DNA from: Wickerhamiella versatilis
Lineage: Eukaryota
Direction: 5' to 3'
Length of the DNA stretch: 64,000 bases
NCBI GenBank assembly: GCA_030867685.1
Contig: JAQOWU010000008.1
Span: forward strand, 62,001 to 126,000
The notes under the pieces are model-generated. The model saw only the letters and a program-made list of their open reading frames with translations, ran no database searches and was not told the DNA's origin. Shown here piece after piece: positions 6,267 through 59,415 of the stretch (position 1 is its first letter; each line of letters starts with the position of its first letter). Both the position numbers and the translations under genes were made by a program.

Positions 6267-6848
6267 CTACCTCCTATTATATTCCATCAGAGGCGAACTT
6301 CGACATGTAAGTTGAAGAATAACCTCTATCTGCCTTATCGCTTCTTTGCTCCACTCAGCTGAGAAAATAACCCCGGTGCAAACATTCACTATTTGTTCAG
6401 CAAGATCACGCGGACTAATATTCACTGACCGCCAACGCTCGGCAATCTCTGTATTCTCGAGTAGTTCAGATACAGCTTCAATATATTTTGTAGTGACCTG
6501 CTCGGTCAACTCTGGTCTTAAAGCCGCAACAGTAACAGAAATTTCTCTGTAGTTCTTGAAGGCACTGATAATCTCACCTGTCCTGACGATCGAGTTTAGA
6601 AGCCTGTTCTCTATTGGCAGTGTATCAACTGAGATATTACTGAGAAACTCACACCAAAGTATGTCTCTATGATATTCGATCGTTGTTAAAAGTAAGTCTT
6701 CTTTTCCGTGAAAATAAAAGTATACAGCCTGCCGCGAGTAGCCTGCCGCCATGGCCACGTCATCGATACTTGTCCCTTTGAACCCCTTTTCAGCGAACAG
6801 ATTATATGCTGCAAGCATTATCAATTCTTTAGATGACCGGCTTTCCAT
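6267..6848 (-). CDS. TetR/AcrR-family transcriptional regulator (bacterial type)
   Basis: Canonical TetR HTH ILxAAxxLFAEKGFKGTSIDDVAxAAGYSRQAVYFYFHGKEDL followed by a helical ligand domain; 193 aa; intronless. Confidence 0.9.
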   Translation of the reverse strand: MESRSSKELIMLAAYNLFAEKGFKGTSIDDVAMAAGYSRQAVYFYFHGKEDLLLTTIEYHRDILWCEFLSNISVDTLPIENRLLNSIVRTGEIISAFKNYREISVTVAALRPELTEQVTTKYIEAVSELLENTEIAERWRSVNISPRDLAEQIVNVCTGVIFSAEWSKEAIRQIEVILQLTCRSSPLMEYNRR

Positions 6849-7591: not shown

Positions 7592-7599
7592 TCACGTGA
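7592..7599. promoter_or_regulatory. TCACGTGA E-box (Cbf1-type site)
   Basis: ATCACGTGAT 70 bp upstream of the ATG at 7669. Confidence 0.5.
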
Positions 7600-11692: not shown

Positions 11693-12718
11693 TATGATTT
11701 CAATAAGAAAGAATTTGAATGGACACAACTCTTAAAGTGCACTGTTTGGCTTGTGGCGGACCACCATATCCGCTTCCATGAAGTCCGATATCAGAAACAT
11801 CTACTTCTCCTGTACAGGCTTGTGATCATCTAGCTCATCATTGACACTTAGGCTTTTTTTTTCGGTTCATAGAGAATCTAATGTGACGTTTTTCCAAATC
11901 ATATATATGGTCAGCACCACCGTATTGCCCATCTTTTCCTTCCACTTTAATTAACTGTTGTGCCCTCAGAGGCTAATGGATGCGAGATGCCTCTCTCAAT
12001 GGCCGGTCTACTAAAATAGTTAAATATATCGCTTATTCATGATAGCCCACACTGGACAGAATAGAAAATTACAAATAAGCACTTAAGATTTCTTATAGGT
12101 TGTTTCCTATCTTATTATCTTTGACAACGAACCTACCCTCCGACATCAACTAATACTCTTATCACGTAGATGCATTGTATAGGATGAAGTGATTGTTATG
12201 TAATTTAGGATCGCGGTCAACATCACCGCCCGTTGCTAATGACCAAGGCCTTCGACGGCTAAAACTCACCTCATAAAGAGTTGCAGCATTAAAAATTTTG
12301 TTATTGTGGTTTTAGCGTAGAAAAAAGTTTTATATACGTTTCCAGCTCGTGTACGGAAAGAGATAAATAAGCCACAAAACGAGTTTGGCGCACCGTGCGC
12401 GACGCTTGAAGACGGCATCGAACCTTGCGATCGGCGAGATATTGCGCCATAAGATGCCCTTATCGGATATGGATTATCTCCGCGGAGTACGTCATCCGTT
12501 TTTTGGGAATATCTTGCCGATGTTATCTTTTCTCCGCGCCGAGGATGGTGACAGCTGATCCTTGCTGTACCACGAGAAGCGTAAGGCTGTCACCTGACCA
12601 TTAGCACTGATGGCGTAATCGACTGGCGTGCTTGTCATGGGATCTCGTCCAGGAGAAACGGCATAGTTAAAGCTAAGCTAAAATATCTGTTCAACTTTTT
12701 TTTTCATTGGCAGTAATA

Positions 12719-13963
12719 ATGTCGGTAAATGTAACTGAATCTCCACTTGCAAACCTTCAATTTGCTCGCTTCACGCAAGATAGTTCTGCCTTCCGCAATA
12801 TACCTCAGGCCAAACACCAGGGCCCTTCCCCATGGGCTGATAAGCAAACCGAAGGACCGTCTGTTTTGCGTGGCTACAAGCCACTTAAGAAATCTGGAAT
12901 TCTAGACAAGACTTACAAGTACACAGAGGTCACTCCGGGACTGGGTCGAGAATTCTACGATGATGCAAGACTTAGCGATATATTGAACAATGAGGACCTT
13001 CTACGGGATCTCGCAATAACAATCAGCGAGCGTGGCGTTGTGTTCTTTAAGAACCAATACGACCTTACCATCGAGCAGCAGAAACAGCTAGCTGACCGTT
13101 TGGGCCGAGCTGCTGGCAAGCCGAAGAGTGCAGGACTTCATATCCACCCAACTGCTTTCACAAACGCGGCTGTAGATTCTAAGACTGGCGAAGCAATACC
13201 TGAGGTTTTGGTGCTCGATTCTTACCGTAACCAGATCCTTCTAAGAGATAAGGTGGGAAGAGGGCTTTCTGGTGGTGGATACCACAGTGATATCACCTTC
13301 GAGCCCGTTCCCGCGAGCTACGCAGTTCTACGTCTCAAGGAAACCCCAAGTAAAAAGCCAAATGAGGCAGAGTTGGCAAAAACCCAATCGGGCCCTGTTG
13401 GTGGAAGTGGTGGAGACACTACTTGGGCTTCTGGGTACGGCCTCGCCGAGAAGGTGAGCCCAGAGTTCCTCCGGTATCTTGAATCACTGAATGGTCACTA
13501 CTCTCAACCATCGTTTGCAAAGGTAACGGATGGAGAAAGTGTCCCATTTTGGTCTGGTGAGAGGGGCTCACCAGAAAACGTCGGCAGCGAGTTGACTGCT
13601 ACTCATCCTCTCGTGCGCACAAATCCGGTCACCGGATGGAAATCCATTTTCGCCATTGGACCTCATTTCACAGGTTTGAATGGCGTGGGCGTGCAGGAGA
13701 GCAACTACGTGAAGAACTATCTTCAAGAATTGCTCTATACCAGCCCAGACATTCAGTTGCGGTACAAGTGGAACCAATACGATGTGGCCATATGGGATAA
13801 TCGCGCTACCTACCACAACATTATATCCGACTTATCCTACTACGATGGCCAGCTACAAAACCGTATAGGATTACGCACGCTGTCATTAGGCGAAAGGCCA
13901 TTCTTAGACCCCAAATCGAAGTTACGGAGTGAGGATTTGGCGGAACGTGACAAACGTCGATAG
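12719..13963 (+). CDS. TauD/Jlp1-family 2-oxoglutarate-dependent sulfonate dioxygenase
   Basis: ERGVVFFKNQ, HSD, GGDTTWASGY, HPLVRTNPVTGWKS, WDNRATYH; ATG at 12719. Confidence 0.92.
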   Translation: MSVNVTESPLANLQFARFTQDSSAFRNIPQAKHQGPSPWADKQTEGPSVLRGYKPLKKSGILDKTYKYTEVTPGLGREFYDDARLSDILNNEDLLRDLAITISERGVVFFKNQYDLTIEQQKQLADRLGRAAGKPKSAGLHIHPTAFTNAAVDSKTGEAIPEVLVLDSYRNQILLRDKVGRGLSGGGYHSDITFEPVPASYAVLRLKETPSKKPNEAELAKTQSGPVGGSGGDTTWASGYGLAEKVSPEFLRYLESLNGHYSQPSFAKVTDGESVPFWSGERGSPENVGSELTATHPLVRTNPVTGWKSIFAIGPHFTGLNGVGVQESNYVKNYLQELLYTSPDIQLRYKWNQYDVAIWDNRATYHNIISDLSYYDGQLQNRIGLRTLSLGERPFLDPKSKLRSEDLAERDKRR

Positions 13964-15809: not shown

Positions 15810-17269
15810 TCAACAGAAAAATCTCCACCTTGGGTCCTTGTCTCCACAATAATCACCCTTCAGCACATAACTCTTATCGTCAGGCTCTTCACAGATTCTT
15901 GCTTTCAGTGTATTATCCCTGACTAAAATATACCTTAGTATAATAGAAGAAATAATTGTGAGCGCTATGAATCCCAGGGAAAATCCATTCCCCAGAGCAT
16001 AACGTGGTGCTTGATCCGGACGGTATACCTGGGTGCCGATGATTGCTCCAATATCGCCAATTGATATCTGGATTGCAGTGGCGACTGCACGTTTAACCTG
16101 CCCCGAAACATTGCTGGCTAACCAGGTGTAGGCAATCGAAGCTGCTGGATAAAGGCCGCCGGTGGCAAAAATAGTGCCGAGGTATTGTATTCCTGGTCTC
16201 AAGTCCGAAATTAGAAGAATGAATCCAATGGCTCCGACCATTGCCGAGAGTGAAATTGCATAGCTACGTGAGAAACTTGTTTTTTCCACGGTCACGGCAA
16301 CCAACAGAGATGCCACGAATGCTACGGCATAAGGTGGCACGCTCAACAATTGCGCACGAGCAGACGAATATCCCATATTTTTGATTATAGTAGGAAGAAA
16401 TAGTGACATAGAATAAAATGGTAATGCAATCCCCATCCATACGAGTGTATACAGCCAAATTCGGAAATCCTTGAACGTCTCTCGAACCTCTGACCATGTA
16501 AATTCGTCATTTCTCAGAGAATCATTACCCACAGATAACCTTTGTAGTAAAATAGCCTGCTCTTGCTCTGAAAGGAACTGACCATAAAAGCCACCAAGAC
16601 GGTAGCACATCCTTCGATAACAAATATCCAGACCCAGCCGCTCTGTCCAGAGACTCCGCCCATATGTCCTATTGCCCAGGCGAGTATACCACCAAAGCCA
16701 CCCGCTAGTGATGTACTCACGAAAAACAGTGTTAGCCTGGACAGCAATTCATTACGTGGATACCACATAGACAAATAGAAAATACAGCCAGGGAATATCC
16801 CTGCCTCCGTAGCACCTAGAGCAAACCGTACACCAAGCAGCCCTCCATAATTCTTCACACGACCCATCAGCGTCATAGCAATGCCCCATGCCAGCATTAG
16901 CGTGGGAAGCCATATTCTTGGACTAGTTTTCTTTAATACGATGTTCGAAGGGATTTCAAAAATACAGTATGCGATAAAAAATATTGTTAAGCAAAGCAAA
17001 TAACCTTCTGAAGAAATTTTTAAGTCTTCAGTGAGATTCTCCAACTTTGCGTTCCCAATGTTAGATCGGTCCAGGAACGAAAGAAAAAAGAAAAGCGTTA
17101 TAGGGGGGATAATACGTATATCAATTTTGCACTTCAAGGTTCTAACCTCTGGGTCCCCATAATTCAGCTTTCTACTTTCATTCGCCGCATCTTCTATGTT
17201 CACGACGGAAAAGGACTTCTCATTGTCATGATTTTCCGTGTAATTTTCTGCCACGTTATATCCGGTCAT
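15810..17269 (-). pseudogene. ACS-family MFS transporter (Tna1-like) broken by an out-of-frame deletion
   Basis: FLDRSNIGNAK...WIFVIEG in one frame and FLSEQE...KDPRWRF in another; the usual LPDxP segment is missing at the junction near 16581. Confidence 0.8.
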
Positions 17270-19774: not shown

Positions 19775-20266
19775 ATGGCCGCTGTGTTCTCAGAAATTGA
19801 AATTGGTGGCCGAGTAGTCGATAATCGCGTTGTTCACGCATCGTCTGATAATCGACGAGCCCCTTGGGGGAGACCATCTCAATTAGCCAGAAAGTTTTAC
19901 ATTGAAAGGTCTCAAGGTAAGTCTCTCACCATTTCAGAACCTGTGGGGGTTGGATATAGTGCTGGCACATCGTTATTCGCTCCTCTCATTGCAAGTTCAG
20001 AACAGATAACAGCATGGAAGGCAATCGTTGATTTAATTCACCAATTAGATGGCAGGTTCTATATTAAGTTATTTCATCGTGGGCGAATTACCACTAAAGG
20101 CGTTCTGCTACGCAACCAGGTCTATTACCAGGCAATAAAACCGAAATTCCATATTGGAAAAATCAATGAGGAAGTAAAAGCATTCCGAGATTCCGCAGTG
20201 TGCTCACTCGTATATATATTGAAAGATCTAAAAAACCAAGATATATCCCACATAATACTTAAATAA
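19775..20266 (+). pseudogene. Truncated, degenerate Old Yellow Enzyme (N-terminal half)
   Basis: VFSEIEIGG..DNRVVHA, FY.ERS, ISE, AWK.IVD.IH..DGR.YIKLFHRGR; ends before the catalytic HxxNGY motif. Confidence 0.7.
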
Positions 20267-20326: not shown

Positions 20327-21613
20327 TTAAGGATTCGGTAGGCCCAGGGTATCCCTCTGAGATTGCGAATTCGGATCAAAAAAAGTCTTATCTGCGAGAG
20401 AGGTAACACGTGTACCATGACGGGCGATACTTTCATCTTCTATGCCATCTGCAGAAGATTCGTTCGCGTAGTCCCATACGGCAAAGTGTTGGGATATGCG
20501 ATTGTCCCATAATGCGGAAGTACCAAGACCTTCCACGGTGGGCTTCCAATTAAAACGTACTTGAATATCAGGATTGCCCTCATAAACTTCGTAGAGTAGC
20601 TCCAGTATTGTATTTGATTCTTTCGGCTCGAGACCGATAATTCTCACGGTCATTCTTCGGTTCACAAACAGAGACTTCCAGCCAGTAACAGGATGGGTCC
20701 GAACTAGATAGTGCTCACGTTCAATATACTTAGGTCCTGACAATGGATCACTGCGGTCCACGTATGGGTGTGAAGACCGGTAAACAGCTTTCTTACCATC
20801 AAGAAATCTTTGGAAGGGCCTAGACAACTTGTCATACGCAGCATATCCCGATGCCCACACAGTGTCACCACCAACAGAAGGAATGGTGTCATTGTGGAGG
20901 TGTGTGATCCCAGCTGGTTGGCTTTCGTGCACCAGATCGGTATGCCAGTATGCCGTACCTGCCGGATGTTTGAAGCTGAATTTATTCTTTGCTGAAAGAT
21001 TTGCCAGCTTGGGCCAAATAACGGTTGTTCCAGAAAGCCCAGGCACAAAGGGAACCTTCGGATGGACCTCAACTTTTCCGTAATAGTGGCCCAATTCGAG
21101 TTGTTTCTGGGGCGACAAGTCCTGGTCGCGGAAGAATACTACAACTCTTTCAGCGATAAGCCGGGCTAATTCATCTTTCTGCTGGTCAGTAAGTTCGGAG
21201 ATCTGAAGACCCACAATCTCAGTTCCAATGTATTTAGTAAGATGTTTTACTTCCTTAGCCGCCCCAAAAAGAGCTTTCTTCTCAGGGTCTGCATTTTTCC
21301 CGCGCTCGATGTGTGTCCATGGCTCACCGCGAATCGCATATCCTTCATCCAAGTAAAACGGAGGGTTTTCAGGATACTCAGGGTATCCTTTTGAAAGGTC
21401 CACCCCATGCCGCTGGAATCTAGATCTGGCTTGTTTCGGCAGATGTTTCACCGCGTTCACATTATTTGGTGACGGCTTGGGTATAGTGAGTGTATTTGCT
21501 CCATCTTTATAGGAAGGTGAATTAATGTTCAAGGTTAGCTTGCCAATCGAATTGGAATCGATAGATTCCAGTGCAGGTTCTGGTTCTGCCTTAAGAGCTG
21601 CTGGAGGTACCAT
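20327..21613 (-). CDS. JLP1: Jlp1-like TauD-family sulfonate dioxygenase
   Basis: GVDLSKGYP, ADPEKKALFGAA, WHTDLVHE.QPAG.THLHND.IP..GGDT, VRTHPVTGWK, WDNR; ATG at 21613 with TATATAA about 35 bp upstream. Confidence 0.88.
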   Translation of the reverse strand: MVPPAALKAEPEPALESIDSNSIGKLTLNINSPSYKDGANTLTIPKPSPNNVNAVKHLPKQARSRFQRHGVDLSKGYPEYPENPPFYLDEGYAIRGEPWTHIERGKNADPEKKALFGAAKEVKHLTKYIGTEIVGLQISELTDQQKDELARLIAERVVVFFRDQDLSPQKQLELGHYYGKVEVHPKVPFVPGLSGTTVIWPKLANLSAKNKFSFKHPAGTAYWHTDLVHESQPAGITHLHNDTIPSVGGDTVWASGYAAYDKLSRPFQRFLDGKKAVYRSSHPYVDRSDPLSGPKYIEREHYLVRTHPVTGWKSLFVNRRMTVRIIGLEPKESNTILELLYEVYEGNPDIQVRFNWKPTVEGLGTSALWDNRISQHFAVWDYANESSADGIEDESIARHGTRVTSLADKTFFDPNSQSQRDTLGLPNP

Positions 21614-22268
21614 ATCGGTCGACTTGTTCGGCGATAATTCGAGCTTATATAAAATACGCCAACTATGGTGAAATTTCACGAGGGTTCATGGGCAAGGATC
21701 ATTGGTGGCGCGGCTTTATCAGTAATTTGGGGCGAAGTCACTAATATGCCACCACTGAGAAAGAGACGTTAAATTTGGTCTAAGCTCCATCTGGTATTTC
21801 CCAAAGTTTTTCTTTTGGTTCCAAAAACAAAGAGTTCGTGCTATGTGGATATAAGGGTTTGTACTACACTATTGCGTGATCCCTCGTATTTCCCCACAGT
21901 AAACCAAGCAACATAATTAATAAAAGATTGGGCTGGATTACTAATGCATATATCCTTATCTTTAGAAGTAAATGCACTGCAAGGATGACAAGATCATAGA
22001 AACATAGAAGCATGCTTGGTAGATAGATTACTTTAGGATGCGCTATAAGCATGAAATCTCAGCAAATACGAAAATATCTGCGTCTCTACTGGTCTATTAG
22101 CCGTCTACTTATTTATCTTATCTTGACAGACGCATCACCTCAATTTGTGTCAGTGTACGCGACTAATAATGGCTTGATGGTGAAGCTTTGCAGCTTATAA
22201 CTATTTATTCACCGTATGGCATAAGCAAAGCTAGATTAATGCATGTGTGCTAGCGTATACTAAATGAG

Positions 22269-25064: not shown

Positions 25065-26252
25065 CTAGTCTGCGAATGCAGGAGGTTTGGCACAATCTTT
25101 CTCGAAACTATGAAGCCCGAGAGTTGCGTCAATCGTTTCTTGTTCCGACTTACCTCCATCAAAGTATGGAACTTCGCCATGGGTAGTTACTCTTACTGCA
25201 TGCCTGCGATGTGGATAAAAACCATAGGAGGCTGCATGCACAGTTGACCGGTTATCCCACAGAGCAACATCCTGCGGGTCCCAGTGCCAGCGCGCGGTAT
25301 GTGTCACATTTTCCTCAATCAGCTTGAACAGATACTTAAGCACAAAGTCAGATTCGGCTCCTGGTACTCCGACTATACGACGAGTAAACCCGGGATTAAC
25401 ATACACCCCCTTGTAACCAGTCACAGGATGGGTTCGAACAATTGGGTGCTCAGTAACAACTGGCTCCCTCCTTACAGTCTTACCAAGCCTGCGTGCACCA
25501 TCTGCCTGCTCAACAGCTGAGTGGAGTGCTGTGAGACCTTCAAGGTAGCGTTGGAAACGGGGGGAAAGGCTGTCGTATAGACCATAAGCACTACCCCAGG
25601 CGGTATCACCACCAGTCGGTGGACCATGAAGTAGTTTGAGCGTAGTATACGATGGCGGCTGTTTTTCGTATGATACATCCGAATGCCATGGTGACCCTCC
25701 CCCCAGGCTAGTTGCGCGCTTTTCCGATGCATATACCACATGGACATCAAGCAAGTTAGGATCATTTTCAGCTTCTCGGGGAATTCCAGTTGTAGCATGG
25801 CGATGCAATTTCCCCCAATGTCGGCCTAACTCTAACTGCTTCTTGATATCAAGGTTTCTCTGATCTTTAAAGAACACGACCCCTCGGTAAGCAGTGAATA
25901 GCGCAAGCTCATCCTTTTGAGAATCAGTCAACTTCGAGAGATCAACTCCATGGAGAACTGATCCGAACTTGGGGGTTAGATGCTCCACCCGAGTCACACT
26001 TTTGAATAGTGTGGGGAACGTGGGGTCAGCACTAAGCGCTCTATCCTTGTATTCATGAACAGGGAGCGGCTCCCACTTGAGATCAGGAAATGTTGGCAGC
26101 AAATTCTCAAATTCGTAATTATCCAGTGAATTCGACTGCGAATCTTCCAGATACAATTTCTGGATGTCTAGACCGGTGATAGGACCATGTGAAACCTTGA
26201 ACCCATCAATTTCGGTTGGGATAGCTTCAGCCTGTGTAGATATTGGCGCCAT
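25065..26252 (-). CDS. TauD-family 2-oxoglutarate-dependent dioxygenase (third copy)
   Basis: RGVVFFKDQ, WHSDVSYE.QPPSYT, GGDT, HPIVRTHPVTG, WDNR..VH. Confidence 0.92.
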   Translation of the reverse strand: MAPISTQAEAIPTEIDGFKVSHGPITGLDIQKLYLEDSQSNSLDNYEFENLLPTFPDLKWEPLPVHEYKDRALSADPTFPTLFKSVTRVEHLTPKFGSVLHGVDLSKLTDSQKDELALFTAYRGVVFFKDQRNLDIKKQLELGRHWGKLHRHATTGIPREAENDPNLLDVHVVYASEKRATSLGGGSPWHSDVSYEKQPPSYTTLKLLHGPPTGGDTAWGSAYGLYDSLSPRFQRYLEGLTALHSAVEQADGARRLGKTVRREPVVTEHPIVRTHPVTGYKGVYVNPGFTRRIVGVPGAESDFVLKYLFKLIEENVTHTARWHWDPQDVALWDNRSTVHAASYGFYPHRRHAVRVTTHGEVPYFDGGKSEQETIDATLGLHSFEKDCAKPPAFAD

Positions 26253-26312: not shown

Positions 26313-26321
26313 GCACGTGAC
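26313..26321 (-). promoter_or_regulatory. GTCACGTG E-box (Cbf1-type site)
   Basis: 60 bp upstream of the TauD ATG at 26252. Confidence 0.55.
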
Positions 26322-26939: not shown

Positions 26940-28027
26940 GTGCCGGTTGAATTTATCAGCTTGGCGTTTCCAAATGCGTCTACTGAGATCAATCCACAGC
27001 CCAAAGCAGGTGTGGATCCCGATTATCTGGTCCGCTACGCTCGAAAAATAAACGACTACGGATTCAATCACACACTGCAGCTATATGATTCTGGTGGATT
27101 TGATCCTCTCACCACAGCAGCTACAATCGCCTCGGTGACGAAACAGCTAAAGGTCATTGTCGCACTTCTCCCCAACACTCTATATCCAACAGTGGCTGCT
27201 AAGGCTCTTGCTACTCTAGACCAGCTCAGCAAAGGCCGGGCGGTCGTGCATTTCATTGCTGGTGGAAGTGATGCCGAGCAGGCCAGGGAGGGCGACTTCT
27301 TGACCAAGGATATGCGGTATGCTCGTCTAGAGGAATACATCAAGATCCTTGAGAGGGCTTGGCAGTCATCGGAGCCCTTCGACTGGGACGGCAAATTCTA
27401 TCAGTTCAAGCAATTTAGCAACAGAGTTCTACCTGTGAATGGCAAGATTCCAGTCTCAGTGGGCGGCTCCTCCCCAGAGGCATACAGGATCAGGGGGGAT
27501 CATTAGCAGATATTTTCGGTCTTTGGGGTGAACCACTCAAAGAGACCAAGGAGCAAATTGATCGTATCTACGCGGAGGCAGAGAAGGCCGGTAGAACAGA
27601 CAAACCAAGAATCTGGGTTACATTCCGCCCAATTACCGCTGAAACTGATGAATTGGCCTGGGAAAAGGCTCATAGAATGCTTGAAATACTTATGAAGAAT
27701 CGGACTGCTGGCGAGTTGGTTAAGACTCCCGCGAATGCGCCTCCCCCTCAGAATGTAGGTTCGCAGCGCCTTCTCGAGATCGCAGCGAAGGGGGAGATCC
27801 AGGATCGGGCACTTTGGTACCCAACTGGTCAGGAAACTAATGCCCGTGGAGCTTCCACTGCCCTAGTGGGTTCTTCAAAGACTATCGCTGACTCGATTCT
27901 TGACTATGTTGATCTTGCTGCCGACCTCATATCTATTAGAGGCTATGACAATCTTAACGATGTGATCGACTACAGGGGGGTGATATTACCACGAGTCTGT
28001 CGTGTTTTGGAGGAAAAGGGGGTCTAA
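26940..28027 (+). pseudogene. Luciferase-like alkanesulfonate monooxygenase (SsuD/MsuD-like), degenerate
   Basis: LATLDQLSKGR..., GEPL, GASTALVGS; starts at GTG rather than ATG; frameshift at the G6 run 27493-27498, after which SLADIFGLWGEPL continues in another frame. Confidence 0.85.
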
Positions 28028-28423: not shown

Positions 28424-29512
28424 ATGACATCTGTCACGGGAAACTCGACGATTCCCGACTGGGAGAGTCCACCAGGCACAGCTTATGAGCTTGACTACGC
28501 TCAGTTAACTAAGATAGATCTGTCGAATTTCGACAAGCCAGGCGGCAAGCAGCAATTAGCTGAAGTTCTCAAGGATGCATTGAACAAAGACGGATTTTGG
28601 GCCGTGGTAGGCTCTGGAATCGGCAAAAGGGAAGTAGAAATCCAGCTTGCTCTGGCCCAAGCGTTTTTCAATCAACCCTTGGAGGAAAAAACTGCCCTCG
28701 AATGTGACTTTCCAAACGGTAATTATTTTGGCTACAAGCGTCTGAATCGACGGCCAGTTTTTGGAACATCAGTCCTAGAGAACTCAGAGCTTATAAACAT
28801 TCCAAAGTTTGCGACTCATCAGGAAGAGTATGTCAACAAGCACAGCTTCATCAGGCAACACCGTGCCAAAATCGAGGACTTTTCTCGCAAGGCCTTCGAA
28901 GTGGCACGCAAACTTTTTGTCCTGTTTGCCATTGTTCTTGAGCTGGAAGATGAGAAATACTTTGTTGAGCGACATCTATATGAGGACCCCAGCGATGATC
29001 ACTTACGCTATATGAAGTATCACCCTCGATCCGTGGAGGACGATCAATTGGTTGAGAATATTTGGGCCCGTGCCCACACCGACTTTGGTAGCCTAACTTT
29101 GCTCTGGAGCCAAGTAGTTAGGGGGCTTCAACTGAAAACTAGGACTGGTGAATGGAAATATATCCCACCGGTTGATGATGGGATAATTTGCAACATTGGA
29201 GACACGCTGTCATTTTGGTCAAATGGTTACTTTAAGAGCACCGTACATCGTGTGGTTAGGCCTCCTCCGGATCAGGCCGATCGACCTCGAATCGGTCTTT
29301 TCTATTTTGTGCGGCCCGGCCAGGCAGCAATCGAGACTGCACCATCGCCCCTTCTCCAGCGACTAGGCTTGGACCAGAAACATAATCCCGTTACAGGGAC
29401 AGAGTATGTACGTCAACGCGTGAAGAACTACCATGACAACGCGTCTTATGAAAAGCGTGCGGGTGAAAGGTTTCGTGTAGGTGACTATGAGATTGACGAC
29501 GGGTTCAACTGA
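28424..29512 (+). CDS. IPNS-like 2OG-Fe(II) oxygenase
   Basis: IDLS, LRYMKYHP, HTDFGSLTLL, CNIGD, KSTVHRV, R.GLFYF. Confidence 0.9.
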   Translation: MTSVTGNSTIPDWESPPGTAYELDYAQLTKIDLSNFDKPGGKQQLAEVLKDALNKDGFWAVVGSGIGKREVEIQLALAQAFFNQPLEEKTALECDFPNGNYFGYKRLNRRPVFGTSVLENSELINIPKFATHQEEYVNKHSFIRQHRAKIEDFSRKAFEVARKLFVLFAIVLELEDEKYFVERHLYEDPSDDHLRYMKYHPRSVEDDQLVENIWARAHTDFGSLTLLWSQVVRGLQLKTRTGEWKYIPPVDDGIICNIGDTLSFWSNGYFKSTVHRVVRPPPDQADRPRIGLFYFVRPGQAAIETAPSPLLQRLGLDQKHNPVTGTEYVRQRVKNYHDNASYEKRAGERFRVGDYEIDDGFN

Positions 29513-32405: not shown

Positions 32406-32816
32406 GATGATGAAGGCTGTCTTCAATGCAGAGTTGGACATTGAGCTCTCATTGTAGAGGATAATGTTTTAAATTTCTATATCAACTCGTTCCGCGGCCC
32501 TAGTTCTCCTTCAAGCGCCGAAATGAAAGATCCCAAATTCATGCCAATAAAATATATAGATCTTTTAAAAAGCCCAGAGATTTTCATCCACTGAAATAGT
32601 TTCTTAATAAAGGATATTTTCTGGAGGGAACTGTCACTCCATTGACCGGCCAGAGACAGTTCTTAAATGATAAATATGCATATACAGAAGTGCCTATTCC
32701 TGGAAAAAAAATGAAGTATCAAATCAGATTGACTATGCAGCTACAGATCAAATGACAATGTTTCTCCCTATATAATATCTATAAATGATTATAGCTTAGA
32801 CTAGCTACACCTAGGC

Positions 32817-35225
32817 TCAATCAAGCCACTTGTACTGATACCCTGGGTGATCGCTTGGCAAATGATCATGGCCAAAAACCTGGCCTCTTGCGGTTTCAGT
32901 GCTGTCATAGTCATCGTGAAATATGCCGCGCCGCTGGAGCTCCGGCACAAGCAAGTTAACGATATCCTCAAAAGACCCAGGAGATGTAATATGGGCAAGA
33001 TTGAACCCATCAAGATCTGATTCGGTCGCCCAACGTTCCAACTCATCTGCAACAGTAGTTGGGCTACCGACTATCTTGCGGCTAAAGCCGCCAAGAATCA
33101 ATTCCTTGGCAATATCTGCTTTAGTCCACCGTCTGGAATCGTCAATACTAAGTACAGTTGACTGAATGGCGGGCGGACCTTCGAAACGAAAGTCATCATC
33201 GTCACGAAATTTCGCCAGATCACTCCCTGTCCATCCACCAAAAAGGGTAAGAGCACCCTCAACATCCGCATAAGACAAGAAATCATTATACTTCTGCTGC
33301 GCCTCTTCATCTGTTTCTCCTAAAATCAAAGCAACGCTAACTACGATCTTGATTTGGTCGGCACCGCGCCCCTGCTCTTCAGCTTGTTTTCTGAGGTCCG
33401 CTACCGTTTGACCTGTACGAGCAGAATTAAATCCGGATATAAAGATCAGCTCGCTGTGCTTTGTACCAAATTCACTTCCGCGCTTCGAGGTCCCTGCTTG
33501 GAAAAGTAAGGGTGTACGCTGAGGAGATGGCTCATTGATATGCACACCATCAACCTTGAAATACTTTCCTTCATGGTGGATAGGCCTTACTTTATTCACA
33601 TCAGCAAATATCCCTTGAGCTTTATCGCGGATGACAGCGTCGTCCTTCCAGCTGGATTCCCAGAGCTTATAGCAGACTTCTAGGAACTCTTCTCCTTTGC
33701 CATACCTTTCATCATGATCAATCTGCGTTTCCAGACCATACATTTGGGCTGCACTTTCTAAGTAAGAAGTTACTATATTCCAGATAACCCGTCCATTTGA
33801 CAAATGATCTAAGGTCGAAAACCTTCGAGCTACGGTGTAGGGATGCTCATAAGTTGTGCTTGTTGTCACACCAAAGGCAAGTTTTTCTGTCACATTAGCC
33901 ATTGCAGATACGGCTAGAGCAGGATCCCCAACTGGAAACTGAGTACCAGTTGTGACAGCAGGCCTAATGTTCCTTGGACCTCCATATACATCGTAGGGTC
34001 CAAGCGTATCAGCGATAAAAAGTGCATGTATTTTTCCCCGTTCAAGCAATTTCGCTAAGTTCACCCAGTATTCAACCTTGTTATAGTTGGAGGTGTCACT
34101 ACTTGGATGCCTCCATAAACCGGGTGACAGATGGTTTGGCGTCGTCATTGCAAACGCATTTAAAATGAGCTTTTTCTGCAGGCGGGATTTCTTCGGTTGA
34201 TGTAACCGTTCCCGCTCCACCTGTTCGTCGTAATTTGGATAATCGGTATAGCCTTTTGCATCCTGACTGTATAACGTACTTCTATCGTATTTGGCGAGAG
34301 GGAGATTATCCTGCAAGCGCCTTACAAGGTCAGGATTCGATATGAAATACCTACCAAAAGCTATCAGTAGCTCAGGATCATCCTTCACGGCTTCTGCTGC
34401 TGTCTTTGGAGTGAAGCCACCAGCCCTAATAAGTGCTCCCGACCAAATATGGCGGATAAAGTCCGAGTTCTCAATGGAATTCCGAGGCTCTACGAGATGC
34501 ACATATGCGATTTCTCTCCCCTCCTTCTTCTTTTGTTCCAACCTTGCTAGTAAGTAAGAAAATATGGGGATAGGGCCATAGGCATAGTTGCTATCAAATG
34601 GAGAAAGGCGCAATCCCACTTTTGAGGACCCTATGGCATCTGATACCGCGTCTATGATGTCAAAGAATACCCTCACTTTGTTCTCGATTGAGCCACCATA
34701 TTTATCGTCCCTATTGTTATCGTCATAGAGGAATCGATTTAACAAGCAGCCGTGAGCTCCGTGAATCTCGACACCATCAAATCCAGCAGCAATGGCATTC
34801 CTAGCAGCCCTTACATGGTCCTTCACAACATCGTTTATATCGGCTGTGGAAAGCTCATCTATTGGGGCACCTACTGGCTCAGCTTTACCTCCATAGTTTT
34901 TACCAGCCGAATACCTTCCAATCGACCACAGTTGTAGAAATATTAAAGATTTCTGCTGATGTACAGCACCAGTGACTTTCTTCCAACCTTTTATCTGATC
35001 ACTAGTGTATATGCCTGGTGTCGACGAATGTGCCTCGTCATCATCATTAATTAAGGCACCCGCAATTAGCAGGGTTCCGGCGGCTTGGGCTCGCTGCCTG
35101 TAGTACTCCGTATCCAATCCGCTTGGAACTCCTTTCTCGTTGGCTCGCAATCGGGTGAGTGGTGGCAAGACAATTCTATGGCCTAGCTCGACGTCACCTA
35201 GACCCACCGGCTCAAAAAGAGACAT
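32817..35225 (-). CDS. Fusion of Old Yellow Enzyme (aa ~1-335) and NtaA/DszA/DmoA-type FMNH2-dependent monooxygenase (aa ~350-802)
   Basis: OYE motifs PLTRLRA, AGFDGVEIHGAHGC, YGGSIEN, FGRYFISNPDL, GYTDYP; then LNAF...GLWRHP, LFIAD, ARRFSTLDHLSNGRVIWNIVTS, PSPQRTP.LFQAG.S, VPELQRRG; one uninterrupted ORF. Confidence 0.9.
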   Translation of the reverse strand: MSLFEPVGLGDVELGHRIVLPPLTRLRANEKGVPSGLDTEYYRQRAQAAGTLLIAGALINDDDEAHSSTPGIYTSDQIKGWKKVTGAVHQQKSLIFLQLWSIGRYSAGKNYGGKAEPVGAPIDELSTADINDVVKDHVRAARNAIAAGFDGVEIHGAHGCLLNRFLYDDNNRDDKYGGSIENKVRVFFDIIDAVSDAIGSSKVGLRLSPFDSNYAYGPIPIFSYLLARLEQKKKEGREIAYVHLVEPRNSIENSDFIRHIWSGALIRAGGFTPKTAAEAVKDDPELLIAFGRYFISNPDLVRRLQDNLPLAKYDRSTLYSQDAKGYTDYPNYDEQVERERLHQPKKSRLQKKLILNAFAMTTPNHLSPGLWRHPSSDTSNYNKVEYWVNLAKLLERGKIHALFIADTLGPYDVYGGPRNIRPAVTTGTQFPVGDPALAVSAMANVTEKLAFGVTTSTTYEHPYTVARRFSTLDHLSNGRVIWNIVTSYLESAAQMYGLETQIDHDERYGKGEEFLEVCYKLWESSWKDDAVIRDKAQGIFADVNKVRPIHHEGKYFKVDGVHINEPSPQRTPLLFQAGTSKRGSEFGTKHSELIFISGFNSARTGQTVADLRKQAEEQGRGADQIKIVVSVALILGETDEEAQQKYNDFLSYADVEGALTLFGGWTGSDLAKFRDDDDFRFEGPPAIQSTVLSIDDSRRWTKADIAKELILGGFSRKIVGSPTTVADELERWATESDLDGFNLAHITSPGSFEDIVNLLVPELQRRGIFHDDYDSTETARGQVFGHDHLPSDHPGYQYKWLD

Positions 35226-35297
35226 TCAGACCGTTGACACTAAACGTGGCTTTTACGAGATTGAAATGTTATATCTTCGAAAGGAAATGCGTTATAC

Positions 35298-35304
35298 CAC
35301 GTGA
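35298..35304 (-). promoter_or_regulatory. TCACGTG E-box (Cbf1-type site)
   Basis: About 73 bp upstream of the fusion gene ATG. Confidence 0.55.
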
Positions 35305-35357
35305 TGTCACACCAGACATCATGCGGTTAGATTCCTAATCTTCGCTGGTTTGTCAGC

Positions 35358-35380
35358 GAGACTGGTTGGACAATGCAGAT
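35358..35380 (-). repeat. Dispersed element copy (reverse)
   Basis: Exact 20-nt core TGCATTGTCCAACCAGTCTC on the minus strand, 35358-35377. Confidence 0.8.
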
Positions 35381-35764
35381 TGATTTATCAGGGTTTCTCT
35401 TGGTATCGCATCATGTTTCGATGGCAGTGGCATTTGGCGGGCAGGATTTCCCGGGATAGCTTGCTTAACTGCCTATCGTTTCTCTATGGTTCGATATTGC
35501 TACGCCTATAGCGGCTATATTAATTTATTTTGGGATTCATTGTCATTATCCAAATTCGAAACTTTCAATAGCCCAATACTGCCTATATCTCCAAATTTCG
35601 AGCTTGTTACTACAACGTTATTGAATTGTCTTTAGAAATGCAACTATTTCTGTATCATCACATCGCTTATACAATGCAGCTAGTGGGGAAAACCTCGCTC
35701 CCAGAGTCCTTATCTGAAATTACTCAGCGTGAATGTCCAAACTGTGACAAATCCTGTAATTTTT

Positions 35765-53302: not shown

Positions 53303-54436
53303 ATGCTCTTCTCATCGCTAATTGCTATCTCTCTTACTGCTGCTGCACCTGCGGGTGAAGAAGCGCTTTTAGAGAAGAGGTCTTCTTTCCCTATTCCTTA
53401 TATAGGAGAATCGTTGAGGGACTATATGCAACAGTTGGTGGGATGGGTAGTTCAACTGCCGCTCATAACCGACGTTGGTAATTTTGATCGCTTAGTATCG
53501 GCAATTCCCACCACTGACATCAGCTTCAACCTCAATTTCTTGCAGCATACATCAAAGACGGATGATATTCCAGGTTATAACACTGACTTTGAACCGGTTG
53601 ATGGTATCGACTCAGCATCGGTTAGATGGTTGGCTGAGGTTGACGGGCGCACAAAGGATGACCCCGTTGTCTTGTACTTTCATGGCGGGGGGTATGTTTT
53701 AGGCTTCAACCCTGCTTTCGCCTCATTTTGGGAAAACGTGTGGAAGGACTACAATACTAGAAGTGACAGGCTCTCCGTCCTTCTTGTTGACTACGCGATA
53801 GCGCCGAATGAAGGCGTTTGGCCGAAGCCTCTACAGCAAGCTGCTGGTATCTATAACAAACTAAGTGAAACTTCAGACAACGTTATTTTAGCGGGTGACA
53901 GTGCTGGTGGACATCTCGCCTTGAGCCTTTTGCGTCATATCAAGTACCCGTGGGAAAATGTCCCCGAGATATCGGCTGGTAAGCCACAGGGACTCGTAGG
54001 CCTTAGTCCTTGGGTGAACATATGGCCTGATCAAGGCAAGGGCATAAAGAACGGCACCTATGCCACCTATGATGGTCTGGATATTTTGAATGCAGGTCTC
54101 TCGTCAGCCATGGGGAACATTTCTGTCCCCGATCTTGAAACACGCAACTCTTCTCAGATGAACTTTTTCAAGGACTATATTAACTGGGAGGAGATTCTTC
54201 CAGACTCCGCGAAAACATTCATTTCTTACGGTGATCAAGAGGTGTTGAAAGGGGATATCGAGACATGGTTAAACATCACCAATCTGCAGGATTCTCAGGC
54301 CACTATTTACCGGGACCTAGCTGGAAATGATAAAGCAATACTCTCCTCGGGGACCCACGATAATGTGGTTGTAAGCGCAAAGAACTCCAAGGGATATGAT
54401 AATCTTGTCGATTTCTTGACCTCCAACTTCGCGTGA
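53303..54436 (+). CDS. Secreted HSL-family esterase (Say1/Mug180-like), copy 1
   Basis: Signal peptide with EKR site, LYFHGGGY, GDSAGG, LSPWV, E.L, H near the C-terminus. Confidence 0.88.
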   Translation: MLFSSLIAISLTAAAPAGEEALLEKRSSFPIPYIGESLRDYMQQLVGWVVQLPLITDVGNFDRLVSAIPTTDISFNLNFLQHTSKTDDIPGYNTDFEPVDGIDSASVRWLAEVDGRTKDDPVVLYFHGGGYVLGFNPAFASFWENVWKDYNTRSDRLSVLLVDYAIAPNEGVWPKPLQQAAGIYNKLSETSDNVILAGDSAGGHLALSLLRHIKYPWENVPEISAGKPQGLVGLSPWVNIWPDQGKGIKNGTYATYDGLDILNAGLSSAMGNISVPDLETRNSSQMNFFKDYINWEEILPDSAKTFISYGDQEVLKGDIETWLNITNLQDSQATIYRDLAGNDKAILSSGTHDNVVVSAKNSKGYDNLVDFLTSNFA

Positions 54437-55887: not shown

Positions 55888-57018
55888 ATGCGCGCCTCGT
55901 CTCTAATTGCTATCGCTTTCACTGCTGCCGCACCTGCAAGTGAGGCGCTAGTAGAGAAGAGATCTTCTTTCCCTATTCCTTATATAGGAGAATCTTTGCG
56001 AGATTACCAGCAAAAATTCGTGGGATGGATAGTTCAGCTGCCACTCATAACAGACGTTGGTAATTTTGATCGCTTAGTATCAGCAATCCCCACCAATGAC
56101 ATCAACTGGAACCTTAATTTCTTGCAGAATACATCAAAGACGGATGATATGCCAGGTTATAACACTAACTTTGAACCGGTTGATGGTATCGACTCAGCAT
56201 CGGTCAAATGGATGGTTGAGGTTGATGGACGCACAAAGGATGACCCCGTTGTTTTGTACTTCCATGGCGGCGGATATGTTTATGGCTTTGAACCTTCTTC
56301 TGCATCGACTTGGCAAGAAATATGGGAAGATTTCTCTACGAAGAGTGAGAGGTTGTCCATCCTTCTGGTCGACTACGCGATAGCGCCAAAGGAAGGCGTT
56401 TGGCCAAAGCCTCTACAGCAAGCTGCTGCTATCTACAACAAACTAAGTGAAACTTCAGACAATATTGTTTTGGTGGGTGACAGCGCTGGTGCACATCTCT
56501 CGCTGAGCCTTTTGCGTCATATGAAGTATCCATGGGAAAGTGTCCCCGAGATATCGGCCGGTAAGCCACAGGGGTTTATAGGCTTCAGTCCCTGGGTAAA
56601 CATATACCCTAATCAAGGCAATGGCACAAAGAACGGCACGTATGTCACATATGAAGGTCTGGATATTTTGAGTGCAGATCTCTTGTCAGCCATGGGGAAC
56701 ATTTCTGTCCCCGATTTTGAGACACGCACGTCCTCTCAGATGAACTTCTGGAAGGACTATATTAATTGGGAGGAGATTCTTCCAGACCCTGCCAAAATAT
56801 TCATTTCCTACGGTGACCAAGAAGTGTTGAAAGGGGATATCCTGACATGGCTAAACATCGCAAATTTGCAGGATTCTCAAGCGACCATCTACCGGGACCT
56901 AGCTGGAAATGAGAATACATCAACTCCCTCGGGGACCCACGATAATCTGTTTCTGAGCGGAAGAACTTCCAAAGGATACGGTGAGCTAATCGATTTCTTG
57001 ACGCACAACTTTGCATGA
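55888..57018 (+). CDS. Secreted HSL-family esterase (Say1/Mug180-like), copy 2
   Basis: Colinear with copy 1 along its whole length; HGGG, GDSAG. Confidence 0.88.
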   Translation: MRASSLIAIAFTAAAPASEALVEKRSSFPIPYIGESLRDYQQKFVGWIVQLPLITDVGNFDRLVSAIPTNDINWNLNFLQNTSKTDDMPGYNTNFEPVDGIDSASVKWMVEVDGRTKDDPVVLYFHGGGYVYGFEPSSASTWQEIWEDFSTKSERLSILLVDYAIAPKEGVWPKPLQQAAAIYNKLSETSDNIVLVGDSAGAHLSLSLLRHMKYPWESVPEISAGKPQGFIGFSPWVNIYPNQGNGTKNGTYVTYEGLDILSADLLSAMGNISVPDFETRTSSQMNFWKDYINWEEILPDPAKIFISYGDQEVLKGDILTWLNIANLQDSQATIYRDLAGNENTSTPSGTHDNLFLSGRTSKGYGELIDFLTHNFA

Positions 57019-57310: not shown

Positions 57311-59361
57311 TTACTCTGTATTAAGGCTGTGGTTGGGCTTCAAATAACTTTCTCTATCCGACTTAATGCTCCCTTCACGCTGCATCCTGCCTTGATGGTA
57401 AGCTTCCACAGGCGACTCTAAGTGATATAACCACCACTTCAGTTTTCCGACAATCGTGTTTCTCTGACGGTGAAGTTTAAGGTATGACTCAGCCTTTTCT
57501 GAAGCCATACACTGCTTTCCAGTACCCACTGGCCACACTGCATCCGTGGTGAGATCGATCTCGTCTAATGAACGAACCTTATCTGTCTTCCAATGAGTCA
57601 ATTTCCAACCACACATGCAAACAACCCAAACAATGCATCCCAGCAAGGTCCCAAATGGTTCTGTCCAAGCACAGGAGCCGGTTGGGCATGAGCCATATAT
57701 TTCAGCGGCGAATAGGAATAACCCTAAAACAATAACAATTATGGGAAGCACCGGAAAAAGATACTGTCTGAATGGCAGGTCGCTCTCAGGTATATTTTGA
57801 CGACGCATCGCTAGTCGAAACCGAAGAGAAAGTACCCCTATCGATGTCCATGTCAGGATTGCACTGCAAGATGTAACGTTCATGAACCATGTAAAGACTG
57901 TGGATGTGGGGAAGGCTGCAGCGATGAAAACAAGGCCACCTAAAGCTGGATATGTTAGTACGTCCGTTCAGAGCATTCAAAGTGCTTGTGCTTCGACTTA
58001 CCAGTTGTGCAAAGTTCTGACATGACCGGCACTCCCCAAGAATTTGTCCATGAAAAGACAGAAGGAAGCATGCGGTCTTGGGCCATAGCCATGAGCATGC
58101 GCGATGCAGCATAAAAGCATGCATTTAACGCTGATATGATAACCACAAGTAGTATTGCGTTAATAAGCTGATCTGCAGCTTTAAAACCTGCCCATCTAAA
58201 TACGAGCGTAATAGGTGATACTGCCGTTAGCATTCTGTGATTTCAAATCTGGAATTGAGAAAACTTACCTGTTACATCTGAATCGTCGCTTGCTTGTACC
58301 AAATTAGGGTCGTTGGCATTGACTGTCAATGCGATTACAAAAACTGTAAGCATTATTAAAAAAATTATACGGTAAAAAGTCATTTTTGCCGCTGCTGGGA
58401 TATATTTGTGGGGCTTCTTTGTCTCTCCTGCCGTCAAGGCAACCATCTCCGTGCCCCCAAAGCTGTAAAACGCGTAGCCTCCAGCAAACAGACCGGGGAA
58501 CCCCCCTTTGAAGTTCAGGCCGCTATGGAAATTAGATAGGCCTGGGCCTTCCTTAGCAGCGGTCGCCACTCCGTTGAAAGCCCAAACCAAGCCTGTCACG
58601 ATATACGCAAGAAGTAGGGATACCTTTATCGCGCTGCACCAATACTCTACCTCACCATACCATTTCACATTCATAAATTGTAATAATACAACAGGGAAAA
58701 GCACGGGAAATATCCATACCCATGCTGGAGGAGACTGGTCCCAAAATGCAATGATAAAAGTACAAGCGCTCAATTCGGAAGGAATACTCTGTAAGTGTTA
58801 GCAATGATCAGTGAATCGAGGTTCTCCAAATACTTACTAATGCCCATTGGAGGTAATAATTAATTCCAACGCTGAATCCCTGAGGCAGTTAGTATGATGA
58901 TACGCATAAATATATCTTTCCTTTTTAATACTTACGAATCCTGGTGACACAAGACGCTCTGCGTAATGCTGAAACGCACCTGAATGGGGAAGATAAGCTG
59001 CCATCTCAGTCAGACAAGTTACCACGGCAAGAACAAATACAGCAGTGATCCCGTATATCACTAGAGCCCCGCCTGGCCCTGCCTGTGCAACTGTCGCACC
59101 GACTGAGAAAAAGAGCCCTACGCCTATAGATCCACCAAGAGCTAGGAAGGAAATATGGCGAGGCTTTAAAGTCTTTTGCGTCTCTTTATTGCCATCTCCA
59201 AGCAAGCGACGCCAAGCAGGCACGGCCTTATTTTCTGGCAACTCAGAATCGGGTTCGCTATGGATGATGGCTTCTTTTTTTTCGAATTCTTCATCATGAG
59301 CATTATTATGAGGCGTGGATCCCGTTCGCGGGGGCCCTTCCTCAAAAATTATGGTGGACAT
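57311..59361 (-). CDS. APC/YAT-family amino-acid permease with 4 introns (58880-58935, 58789-58837, 58221-58268, 57946-58001)
   Basis: LKPRHI..LALGGSIGVGLF, V..YGE.EYW...IKV, FSFGGTE...TAGE. Each intron has GTAAGT, a (T/G)CTAAC-type branch site and CAG; splicing joins all exons in frame. Confidence 0.9.
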
Positions 59362-59415
59362 GCTATGGGTAAAAATGTGACTAAGAAAAAAAAAGACTAG
59401 TTCCCTCACGCAGCA

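Follow-up and report, generated by a model that had tools for sequence, protein, structure and literature searches.

An old yellow enzyme fused to a luciferase-like monooxygenase in a small yeast clade: a candidate self-sufficient flavin monooxygenase with a possible role in sulfur scavenging

The DNA analysed here, hereafter the window, is a stretch of 64,000 nucleotides from Wickerhamiella versatilis (assembly GCA_030867685.1, contig JAQOWU010000008.1, positions 62,001 to 126,000 of the forward strand). Its G+C content is 40–47%, it carries widely spaced single-exon open reading frames (ORFs), and it has the look of a chromosome arm from a budding yeast. The subject of this report is one of these, an ORF encoding a protein of 802 amino acids in which a domain of the old yellow enzyme (OYE) family precedes a luciferase-like monooxygenase (LLM) of the NtaA/DmoA family. 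The opposite, plus strand of the same interval is interrupted by many stops throughout. That a full OYE barrel and a full LLM share a single frame was the starting point of the original prediction, made from the sequence alone, and it is borne out by ORF continuity, Pfam and NCBIfam. In the Pfam scan Oxidored_FMN covers residues 2–310 (profile positions 1–341 of 342, E-value 1.4e-77) and Bac_luciferase residues 374–732 (E-value 4.8e-48); no match to PF01613 or PF03358 was reported for the fusion in that scan, the N-terminal domain being PF00724. The NCBIfam model of the NtaA/DmoA family, TIGR03860, is matched by residues 355–776 (profile positions 1–417 of 422); the score is 492.7 bits and the cut-off 279.7.

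The OYE half is nearest to yeast OYE2, OYE3 and OYE1, with E-values of about 1e-82 to 1e-84 over residues 2–336. Its AlphaFold model is confident (predicted local distance difference test, pLDDT, 88; predicted template modelling score, pTM, 0.90) and superimposes on OYE1, OYE2 and OYE3 with template modelling (TM) scores of 0.88–0.91 in Foldseek. The OYE fold ends near residue 336 and the LLM starts at a KKLILNAF motif, the point at which DmoA and LadA start as stand-alone proteins, so the actual tether between the two halves is about 13 residues long. The linker string given in the original prediction, EQVERERLHQPKKSR, is present, but it corresponds to residues 334–348 and overlaps the end of the OYE domain. 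A full-length AlphaFold model, built from a 19-row alignment of fused proteins, has pLDDT 62.6 and pTM 0.50 and is too poor for domain packing to be read from it; docking of OYE residues 1–338 against LLM residues 350–802 scored 0.00 in a run without controls, which is evidence neither way.

An error of assembly or gene calling, by which two neighbouring genes are misread as one, would give the same appearance. We consider this very improbable, and at the level of DNA it is ruled out by the continuous frame, the independent runs and the clustered orthologues. Positions 32600–35500 are covered in 30 of 30 bins, without joints, by contigs of all four runs, which come from four studies. A stop codon in the linker had been named as a finding that would refute the fusion: the frame stays open, and among the contigs listed the linker is bridged without insertion or deletion in three of the four runs. 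The same architecture is found in 27 member sequences grouped into seven clusters. Six of the eight CTG codons of the ORF fall on invariant leucine columns, so the standard code applies.

At 90% identity the window protein clusters with five further alleles, all six sequences being 802 residues long and 96–98% identical. The contigs of the four runs fall into two allele classes, some matching exactly and others with 9–19 differences per 190–440 bases, which suggests heterozygosity, a hybrid genome or a mixture of strains. A further difference between the classes is a pair of single-base length changes that compensate each other, at 34472–34478 in a loop of the OYE half (loop C, see below), and within the species the OYE half is 93–98% identical versus 98–99% for the LLM half.

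We have searched for relatives of the fusion with a word-indexed search of 5.8 billion proteins, in which orthologues are counted as clusters at 90% identity. The search for Oxidored_FMN together with Bac_luciferase that the original prediction had called for yields seven clusters with both domains (P0001–P0007), 61–76% identical, their 27 members coming from Logan, ENA and JGI. The architecture is genuine and has been kept across a small clade. Below these seven, the word-indexed search returns stand-alone LLMs only, of 475–500 amino acids and 52–59% identical to the C-terminal half, and the names attached to them are mostly from Pezizomycotina. An exhaustive HMMER pass over 1.84 billion representatives of 50% clusters finds one OYE-LLM cluster, represented by P0004. 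The other long matches checked in that search are either OYE-OYE proteins or LLMs extended in other ways; P0137, P0190, P0192, P0194, P0217 and P0225 were rejected as OYE-LLM fusions, being tandem or extended OYE proteins. A scan of metagenome contigs with the fused alignment gave 71 loci, all of them unfused relatives matching from residue 327 onward. When LLM halves are placed in a 55-row tree, those of the seven fused proteins group together as a clade of their own (SH-aLRT 100), nested in a 36-row fungal clade (support 97) beside a 28-row clade to which most stand-alone LLMs with Pezizomycotina names belong. This monophyly points to one fusion event in one yeast lineage, and as far as the searched databases show the fusion appears confined to one small yeast clade.

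DszA, SsuD, DmoA and LadA are two-component flavin monooxygenases that need a separate flavin reductase, and this need complicates both their physiology and their biocatalytic use. The LLM half of the fusion aligns end to end with DmoA of Hyphomicrobium sulfonivorans (6ak1; 485 bits, 2e-144) and LadA (3b9n; 434 bits, 8e-129). Matches to HcbA (303 bits), riboflavin lyase (286 bits), DszA (5tlc, 232 bits) and also YtnJ are weaker, so that the original label of a DszA-type enzyme was loose. Relative to DmoA/DmoB and LadA, the fusion differs in having its presumed electron supplier on the same chain, in drawing that supplier from the OYE family and in its eukaryotic host. DmoA uses a separate flavin reductase, DmoB (PMC13352529). 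Fungal PF00296 enzymes are described as uncharacterised, with no reductase partner shown in fungi, in the 2018 review by Linder (PMC5857272).

To describe the OYE half we set the seven fused proteins beside 12 stand-alone OYEs that the representative search had returned, using OYE1 numbers, from which OYE2 numbering is offset by one. The window protein keeps T24 (OYE1 T37), Q98 (Q114), W100 (W116), H155 (H191), R206 (R243), R292 (R348) and Y319 (Y375), and with them the complete flavin mononucleotide (FMN)-binding set of T37, Q114, R243 and R348. H158 (N194), C160 (Y196), H66 (Y82) and S250/I251 (P295/F296) are changed, the F250/N251 segment is absent and the P295/F296 loop is 12 residues shorter. 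H155 and H158 form a normal His/His substrate-activating pair. The motif H155-G-A-H158-G-C160 and the shortened active-site loops, both reported from the sequence alone, hold up: the first by alignment to OYE1 and OYE2 and by a TGC codon at position 160, the second by comparison of three loops with the stand-alone enzymes.

Among the seven fused proteins, Q98 and the equivalent of W116 are kept in all, H155, R206, R292 and Y319 in six and T24 in five. Fifty-eight positions, flavin-binding residues among them, show no variation across six fused proteins and at least 11 of the 12 stand-alone OYEs. Elsewhere the two sets part company. At the N194 position, Asn in 11 of 12 stand-alone OYEs, the fused proteins have H, H, F, Y, D, Y and F; at the Y82 position, Tyr in 8 of 12, they have H, H, E, K, A, N and K, never Tyr; and the Glu of the TEA/TEG motif, present in all 12, is Gly in six of the seven. 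Loop A measures 25 residues in six of the seven fused proteins versus 33–47 in all 12 stand-alone OYEs, loop B 13–15 versus 16–19 and loop C 8–12 versus 10–21, with two of the 12 stand-alone lengths overlapping the fused range. Every fused protein has shortened versions of the loops that bear F250 and P295/F296. As a result of the three loop deletions the OYE half is some 40–60 residues shorter than the class I enzymes OYE1, OYE2 and OYE3, which are its top matches in sequence and fold and with which it has the flavin-binding residues and H191 in common; they also lack the attached LLM. Given the 58 invariant positions on the one hand and the variable pocket and loops on the other, the barrel and flavin site are constrained, and the pocket for binding and activating enones is not. 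A survey of 424 fungal OYEs finds H191, N194, Y196, F250 and Y375 well conserved in class I, and the words "fusion" and "luciferase" do not occur in it (PMC3915301).

Cys160, which replaces the usual proton donor, is not a hallmark of the fusion, and on this point the original prediction needs amending. All six alleles of the species have Cys, yet this residue occurs in one of the seven clusters, and five of the seven, including the 76%-identical sister P0002, have Tyr; judged by the alignment, Cys160 is a species-level change and no property of the fusion. Morphinone reductase, a free-standing bacterial ene-reductase, is said to have Cys at the Tyr196 position; in the fusion family, by comparison, Cys is confined to one species.

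We propose, with a probability of roughly one half, that the OYE half is an NAD(P)H-driven electron supplier that would provide the LLM half with reduced FMN in cis. The protein would then combine both components of a flavin monooxygenase in one chain, and a budding yeast would make it under sulfur scarcity. NAD(P)H would reduce the FMN bound in the OYE half, by this reading a former ene-reductase, and the widened, loop-trimmed pocket might let this bound flavin reduce a second, exchangeable FMN; alternatively, the OYE half might let its reduced FMN (FMNH2) go. The short tether would keep the reduced flavin beside the LLM, which would use it together with O2 to oxidise a carbon adjoining a heteroatom. 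An OYE as the presumed reductase-type module of a fused two-component flavin monooxygenase is unprecedented, and full-text literature searches gave no paper on an OYE-LLM fusion among the results listed.

A parallel comes from fungal proteins in which the same LLM family is joined to a canonical flavin reductase. In P0139 (817 amino acids) a Flavin_Reduct domain (PF01613, of the HsaB/HpaC/StyB/RutF type) stands before an LLM that is 50% identical to that of the window and matches TIGR03860 with 544.7 bits. In all, 22 clusters carry Flavin_Reduct with this LLM family (P0139 and P0300–P0320), among them a "monooxygenase" of Trichosporon asahii CBS 2479 (P0317) and a protein of the chytrid Fimicolochytrium jonesii (P0312), and the reductase is N-terminal to the LLM in all seven of these clusters that were checked. 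In the LLM tree P0139 branches elsewhere, with an Arthrobacter protein as its neighbour, so the Flavin_Reduct-LLM fusion is independent of the OYE-LLM fusion. By this evidence the same LLM family has twice gained an N-terminal flavoprotein module in fungi, and the one in the Flavin_Reduct-LLM proteins is beyond doubt a flavin reductase. The two kinds of fusion are alike in LLM family, in carrying the redox module at the N-terminus and in being eukaryotic; they differ in the PF01613 module, in origin and in sulfur content, the Flavin_Reduct-LLM proteins not being sulfur-poor (see below). The latter appear to be uncharacterised and are themselves candidate self-sufficient LLM monooxygenases. StyA2B, too, joins the oxygenase of a two-component flavin monooxygenase to its flavin reductase in nature, but it is bacterial, depends on flavin adenine dinucleotide, has the group E oxygenase fold and carries a canonical StyB-type reductase at its C-terminus (PMC6017014, PMC4460183).

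The kept residues can also be read in another way. The protein may be bifunctional, its OYE half still serving as an ene-reductase or electrophile detoxifier while general reductases feed the LLM and fusion ensures no more than co-expression. Tyr196 is kept in five of the seven clusters and W116 in all, so ordinary ene-reductase chemistry may persist in most orthologues; Y375 is kept in six of the seven, and the His/His pair is normal. Moreover, unfused OYE2 and OYE3 of Saccharomyces cerevisiae are already in the Met31/32 regulon, both being induced via Met31/32 and OYE2 also via Cbf1, and are described as antioxidant genes (PMC3408426). We nevertheless regard this account as unlikely. N194 is replaced by Phe or Tyr in four of the seven clusters, Y82 is never Tyr and the F250 and P295/F296 loops are trimmed throughout, although such pocket residues are well conserved in class I fungal OYEs (PMC3915301); the proton donor is Cys in the window species; and the true flavin reductase found at the same position in the parallel fusions points to electron supply.

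The orthologue P0005 (four members, on contigs of up to 218 kb) bears on each of these readings. It has lost the equivalents of H155, H158, the Tyr, R206, R292 and T24 together with part of loop A, yet in the LLM half its identity to the window protein is 77%. As the flavin site of its OYE half is lost and the LLM conserved, the LLM of that lineage must receive reduced flavin in trans or go without, which argues against cis supply being obligatory and shows, for the bifunctional account, that a lineage can manage without a working OYE flavin site. The idea of a reductase in cis, as first put forward, is therefore strengthened by the parallel fusions with the same domain order and weakened by P0005 as far as necessity is concerned. 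P0005 is in itself a natural "OYE-dead" variant.

P0005 also lends something to a third possibility, that the OYE half is a passenger, the relic of an accidental fusion that is decaying or serves structurally, with the LLM alone functional. The OYE half does evolve faster, between species (mean pairwise identity across the seven orthologues 55%, versus 73% for the LLM half) as well as within the species, where loop C is polymorphic down to the compensated length changes noted above. What makes this account less probable still than bifunctionality is that the reading frame and the full barrel are kept in all seven clusters although their LLM halves have diverged to 65–81% identity, that the 58 core positions, flavin-binding ones included, are invariant in six of the seven, and that the modelled barrel is confident and close to OYE1–3. 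The OYE half is also poorer in sulfur than the LLM half, and its very low content of methionine and cysteine suggests selection on an expressed, abundant domain.

The very low content of sulfur amino acids in both halves, another of the features first noticed in the sequence, is indeed found in all seven orthologues. The window protein has 6 Met+Cys residues in 802 (0.75%; OYE half 0.58%, LLM half 0.88%), and the seven fused proteins range from 0.25 to 1.0%, with 0–0.59% in the OYE halves and 0.44–1.32% in the LLM halves. For comparison, 19 of the 26 ORFs of at least 200 amino acids in the window have 2.06–6.3% Met+Cys, and the medians are 2.03% for 98 bacterial-type LLMs and 2.21% for the 22 reductase-LLM fusions.

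The surroundings of the gene are listed in Table 1. Several MFS and SSF transporters lie within 25 kb on either side, interleaved with the dioxygenases, and relatives of TauD-3 are named Jlp1p or alpha-ketoglutarate-dependent sulfonate dioxygenase. The fusion and the dioxygenases fit a sulfur-scavenging gene neighbourhood, and the sulfur-starvation setting suggested by the original prediction gains from the three TauD/Jlp1-like genes, the transporters, the sulfur-poor ORFs and the Cbf1-type box described below. The split of the second, SsuD-like LLM reflects either a pseudogene with a frameshift or a sequencing error in a homopolymer, and the 163-residue OYE fragment is probably a truncated relic. 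For one neighbouring gene the top named homologues are from Blastobotrys, Trichomonascus and Sugiyamaella (59–62%), which points to a yeast of the Dipodascales type.

Table 1. Positions in the window of the fusion gene, its parts, neighbouring genes and promoter boxes
Feature	Position	Strand	Remarks
OYE-LLM fusion, whole ORF	32817–35225	−	ATG, 802 codons, TGA stop at 32817–32819
OYE (Oxidored_FMN) domain, residues 1–336	34218–35225	−	Pfam PF00724, OYE1/2/3 alignment, AlphaFold, Foldseek
Active-site motif H155-G-A-H158-G-C160 (OYE1 H191, N194, Y196)	34746–34763	−	OYE1/OYE2 alignment
Inter-domain linker, residues 337–349	34179–34217	−	ERERLHQPKKSRL; sequence and length differ between orthologues
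NtaA/DmoA-family LLM, predicted FMNH2-dependent monooxygenase, residues 350–802	32820–34178	−	TIGR03860
TauD/TfdA-type (Jlp1-like) dioxygenase 1	12707–13963	+	Met+Cys 0.24%
TauD/TfdA-type (Jlp1-like) dioxygenase 2	20327–21679	−	Met+Cys 0.47%
TauD/TfdA-type (Jlp1-like) dioxygenase 3, TauD-3	25065–26252	−	Met+Cys 0.51%
2-oxoglutarate (2OG)-Fe(II) oxygenase	28424–29512	+	Met+Cys 1.10%
Second, SsuD-like LLM, in two frames	26940–28027	+	split near G run at about 27493–27500
163-residue OYE fragment	19775–20266	+	first 150 positions of OYE profile only, E-value 4.5e-11; abuts TauD gene
CACGTG box (TCACGTG)	35298–35303	.	context ACATCACGTGGTATAAC; 73 bases before fusion ATG; candidate Cbf1/Met4-type site
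CACGTG box (TCACGTG)	26314–26319		62 bases before TauD-3 ATG; flank like that of fusion box, GTGAYRTCACGTG
CACGTG box	7593–7598		76 bases before ATG of MFS/UNC-93 gene

Some other ORFs of the window were noted in passing. Two tandem Say1/Mug180-like hydrolases at 53303–54436 and 55888–57018, both on the plus strand, have 1.06% and 1.60% Met+Cys, with no Cys. A 193-residue ORF at 6267–6848 (minus strand) has a bacterial-type TetR_N domain (E-value 8.6e-15), which is unusual in a yeast-like chromosome, and it may have been horizontally acquired. Three ORFs at 57311–59409 (minus strand) are pieces of a single amino-acid permease, and two overlapping ones at 15810–17269 (minus strand) are pieces of an MFS transporter; these broken, pseudogene-like features fit a fast-evolving, subtelomere-like region.

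The CACGTG box that the original prediction had placed upstream of the fusion is there, at the distance given in Table 1. It is one of three among the 14 CACGTG boxes of the window that lie 62–76 bases before an ATG, for which a rough post-hoc expectation is far below one; no CTGTGGC (Met31/32) site occurs within 800 bases of the fusion. The boxes are at most suggestive of sulfur regulation. In other fungi, PF00296 genes have been associated with sulfur-linked promoter motifs (PMC5857272), four of them are Met4-dependent in Candida parapsilosis (PMC11502921), and PF00296 genes are induced by sulfur limitation in Candida albicans (PMC13170222).

A number of observations weigh against cis supply of reduced flavin by the OYE half and against its link to sulfur. 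Tyr196 and W116 are widely kept, the OYE half evolves faster than the LLM half and P0005 has lost its flavin site, as set out above; in P0006, too, the position of T24 (OYE1 T37) is Gln. OYEs are known for their tightly bound FMN. In the flanks of the 71 unfused loci, tblastn at 1e-5 found neither an OYE gene nor a gene for a P0139-like reductase domain. Among the results listed, the literature searches gave no paper in which an OYE provides a two-component monooxygenase with reduced flavin. Sulfur poverty is real, yet partly a family trait, the median Met+Cys being 1.41% in 112 stand-alone fungal-type LLMs and 1.09% in the 12 stand-alone OYEs. Finally, the 14 CACGTG boxes compare with 8.2 expected, a modest excess that 2 of 100 shuffles reach.

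The two nearest solved relatives of the LLM half differ widely in substrate, dimethyl sulfide (DMS) for DmoA and alkanes for LadA. The substrate of the fusion is probably a small organosulfur compound. A dialkyl sulfide such as DMS, converted to a thiol for methionine synthesis, is an attractive candidate, though a guess.

The natural role of OYEs has been debated for some 90 years. The fusion makes two questions assayable: which partner serves the LLM monooxygenases of fungi, and what function OYEs have. If its OYE half is a relic or acts as an ordinary ene-reductase, what remains is a gene fusion specific to one lineage. If electron supply by the OYE half is the right reading, the protein would be a compact, naturally self-sufficient single-chain LLM biocatalyst. 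Tentatively, and at somewhat less than even odds, we suggest a wider meaning: an OYE would here serve a two-component monooxygenase as its physiological NAD(P)H:FMN reductase, the fusion would give a Rosetta-stone hint at what the family does in nature, and at least some OYEs, possibly including the unfused OYE2 and OYE3 of the yeast Met regulon, may feed sulfur-scavenging LLMs during sulfur starvation.

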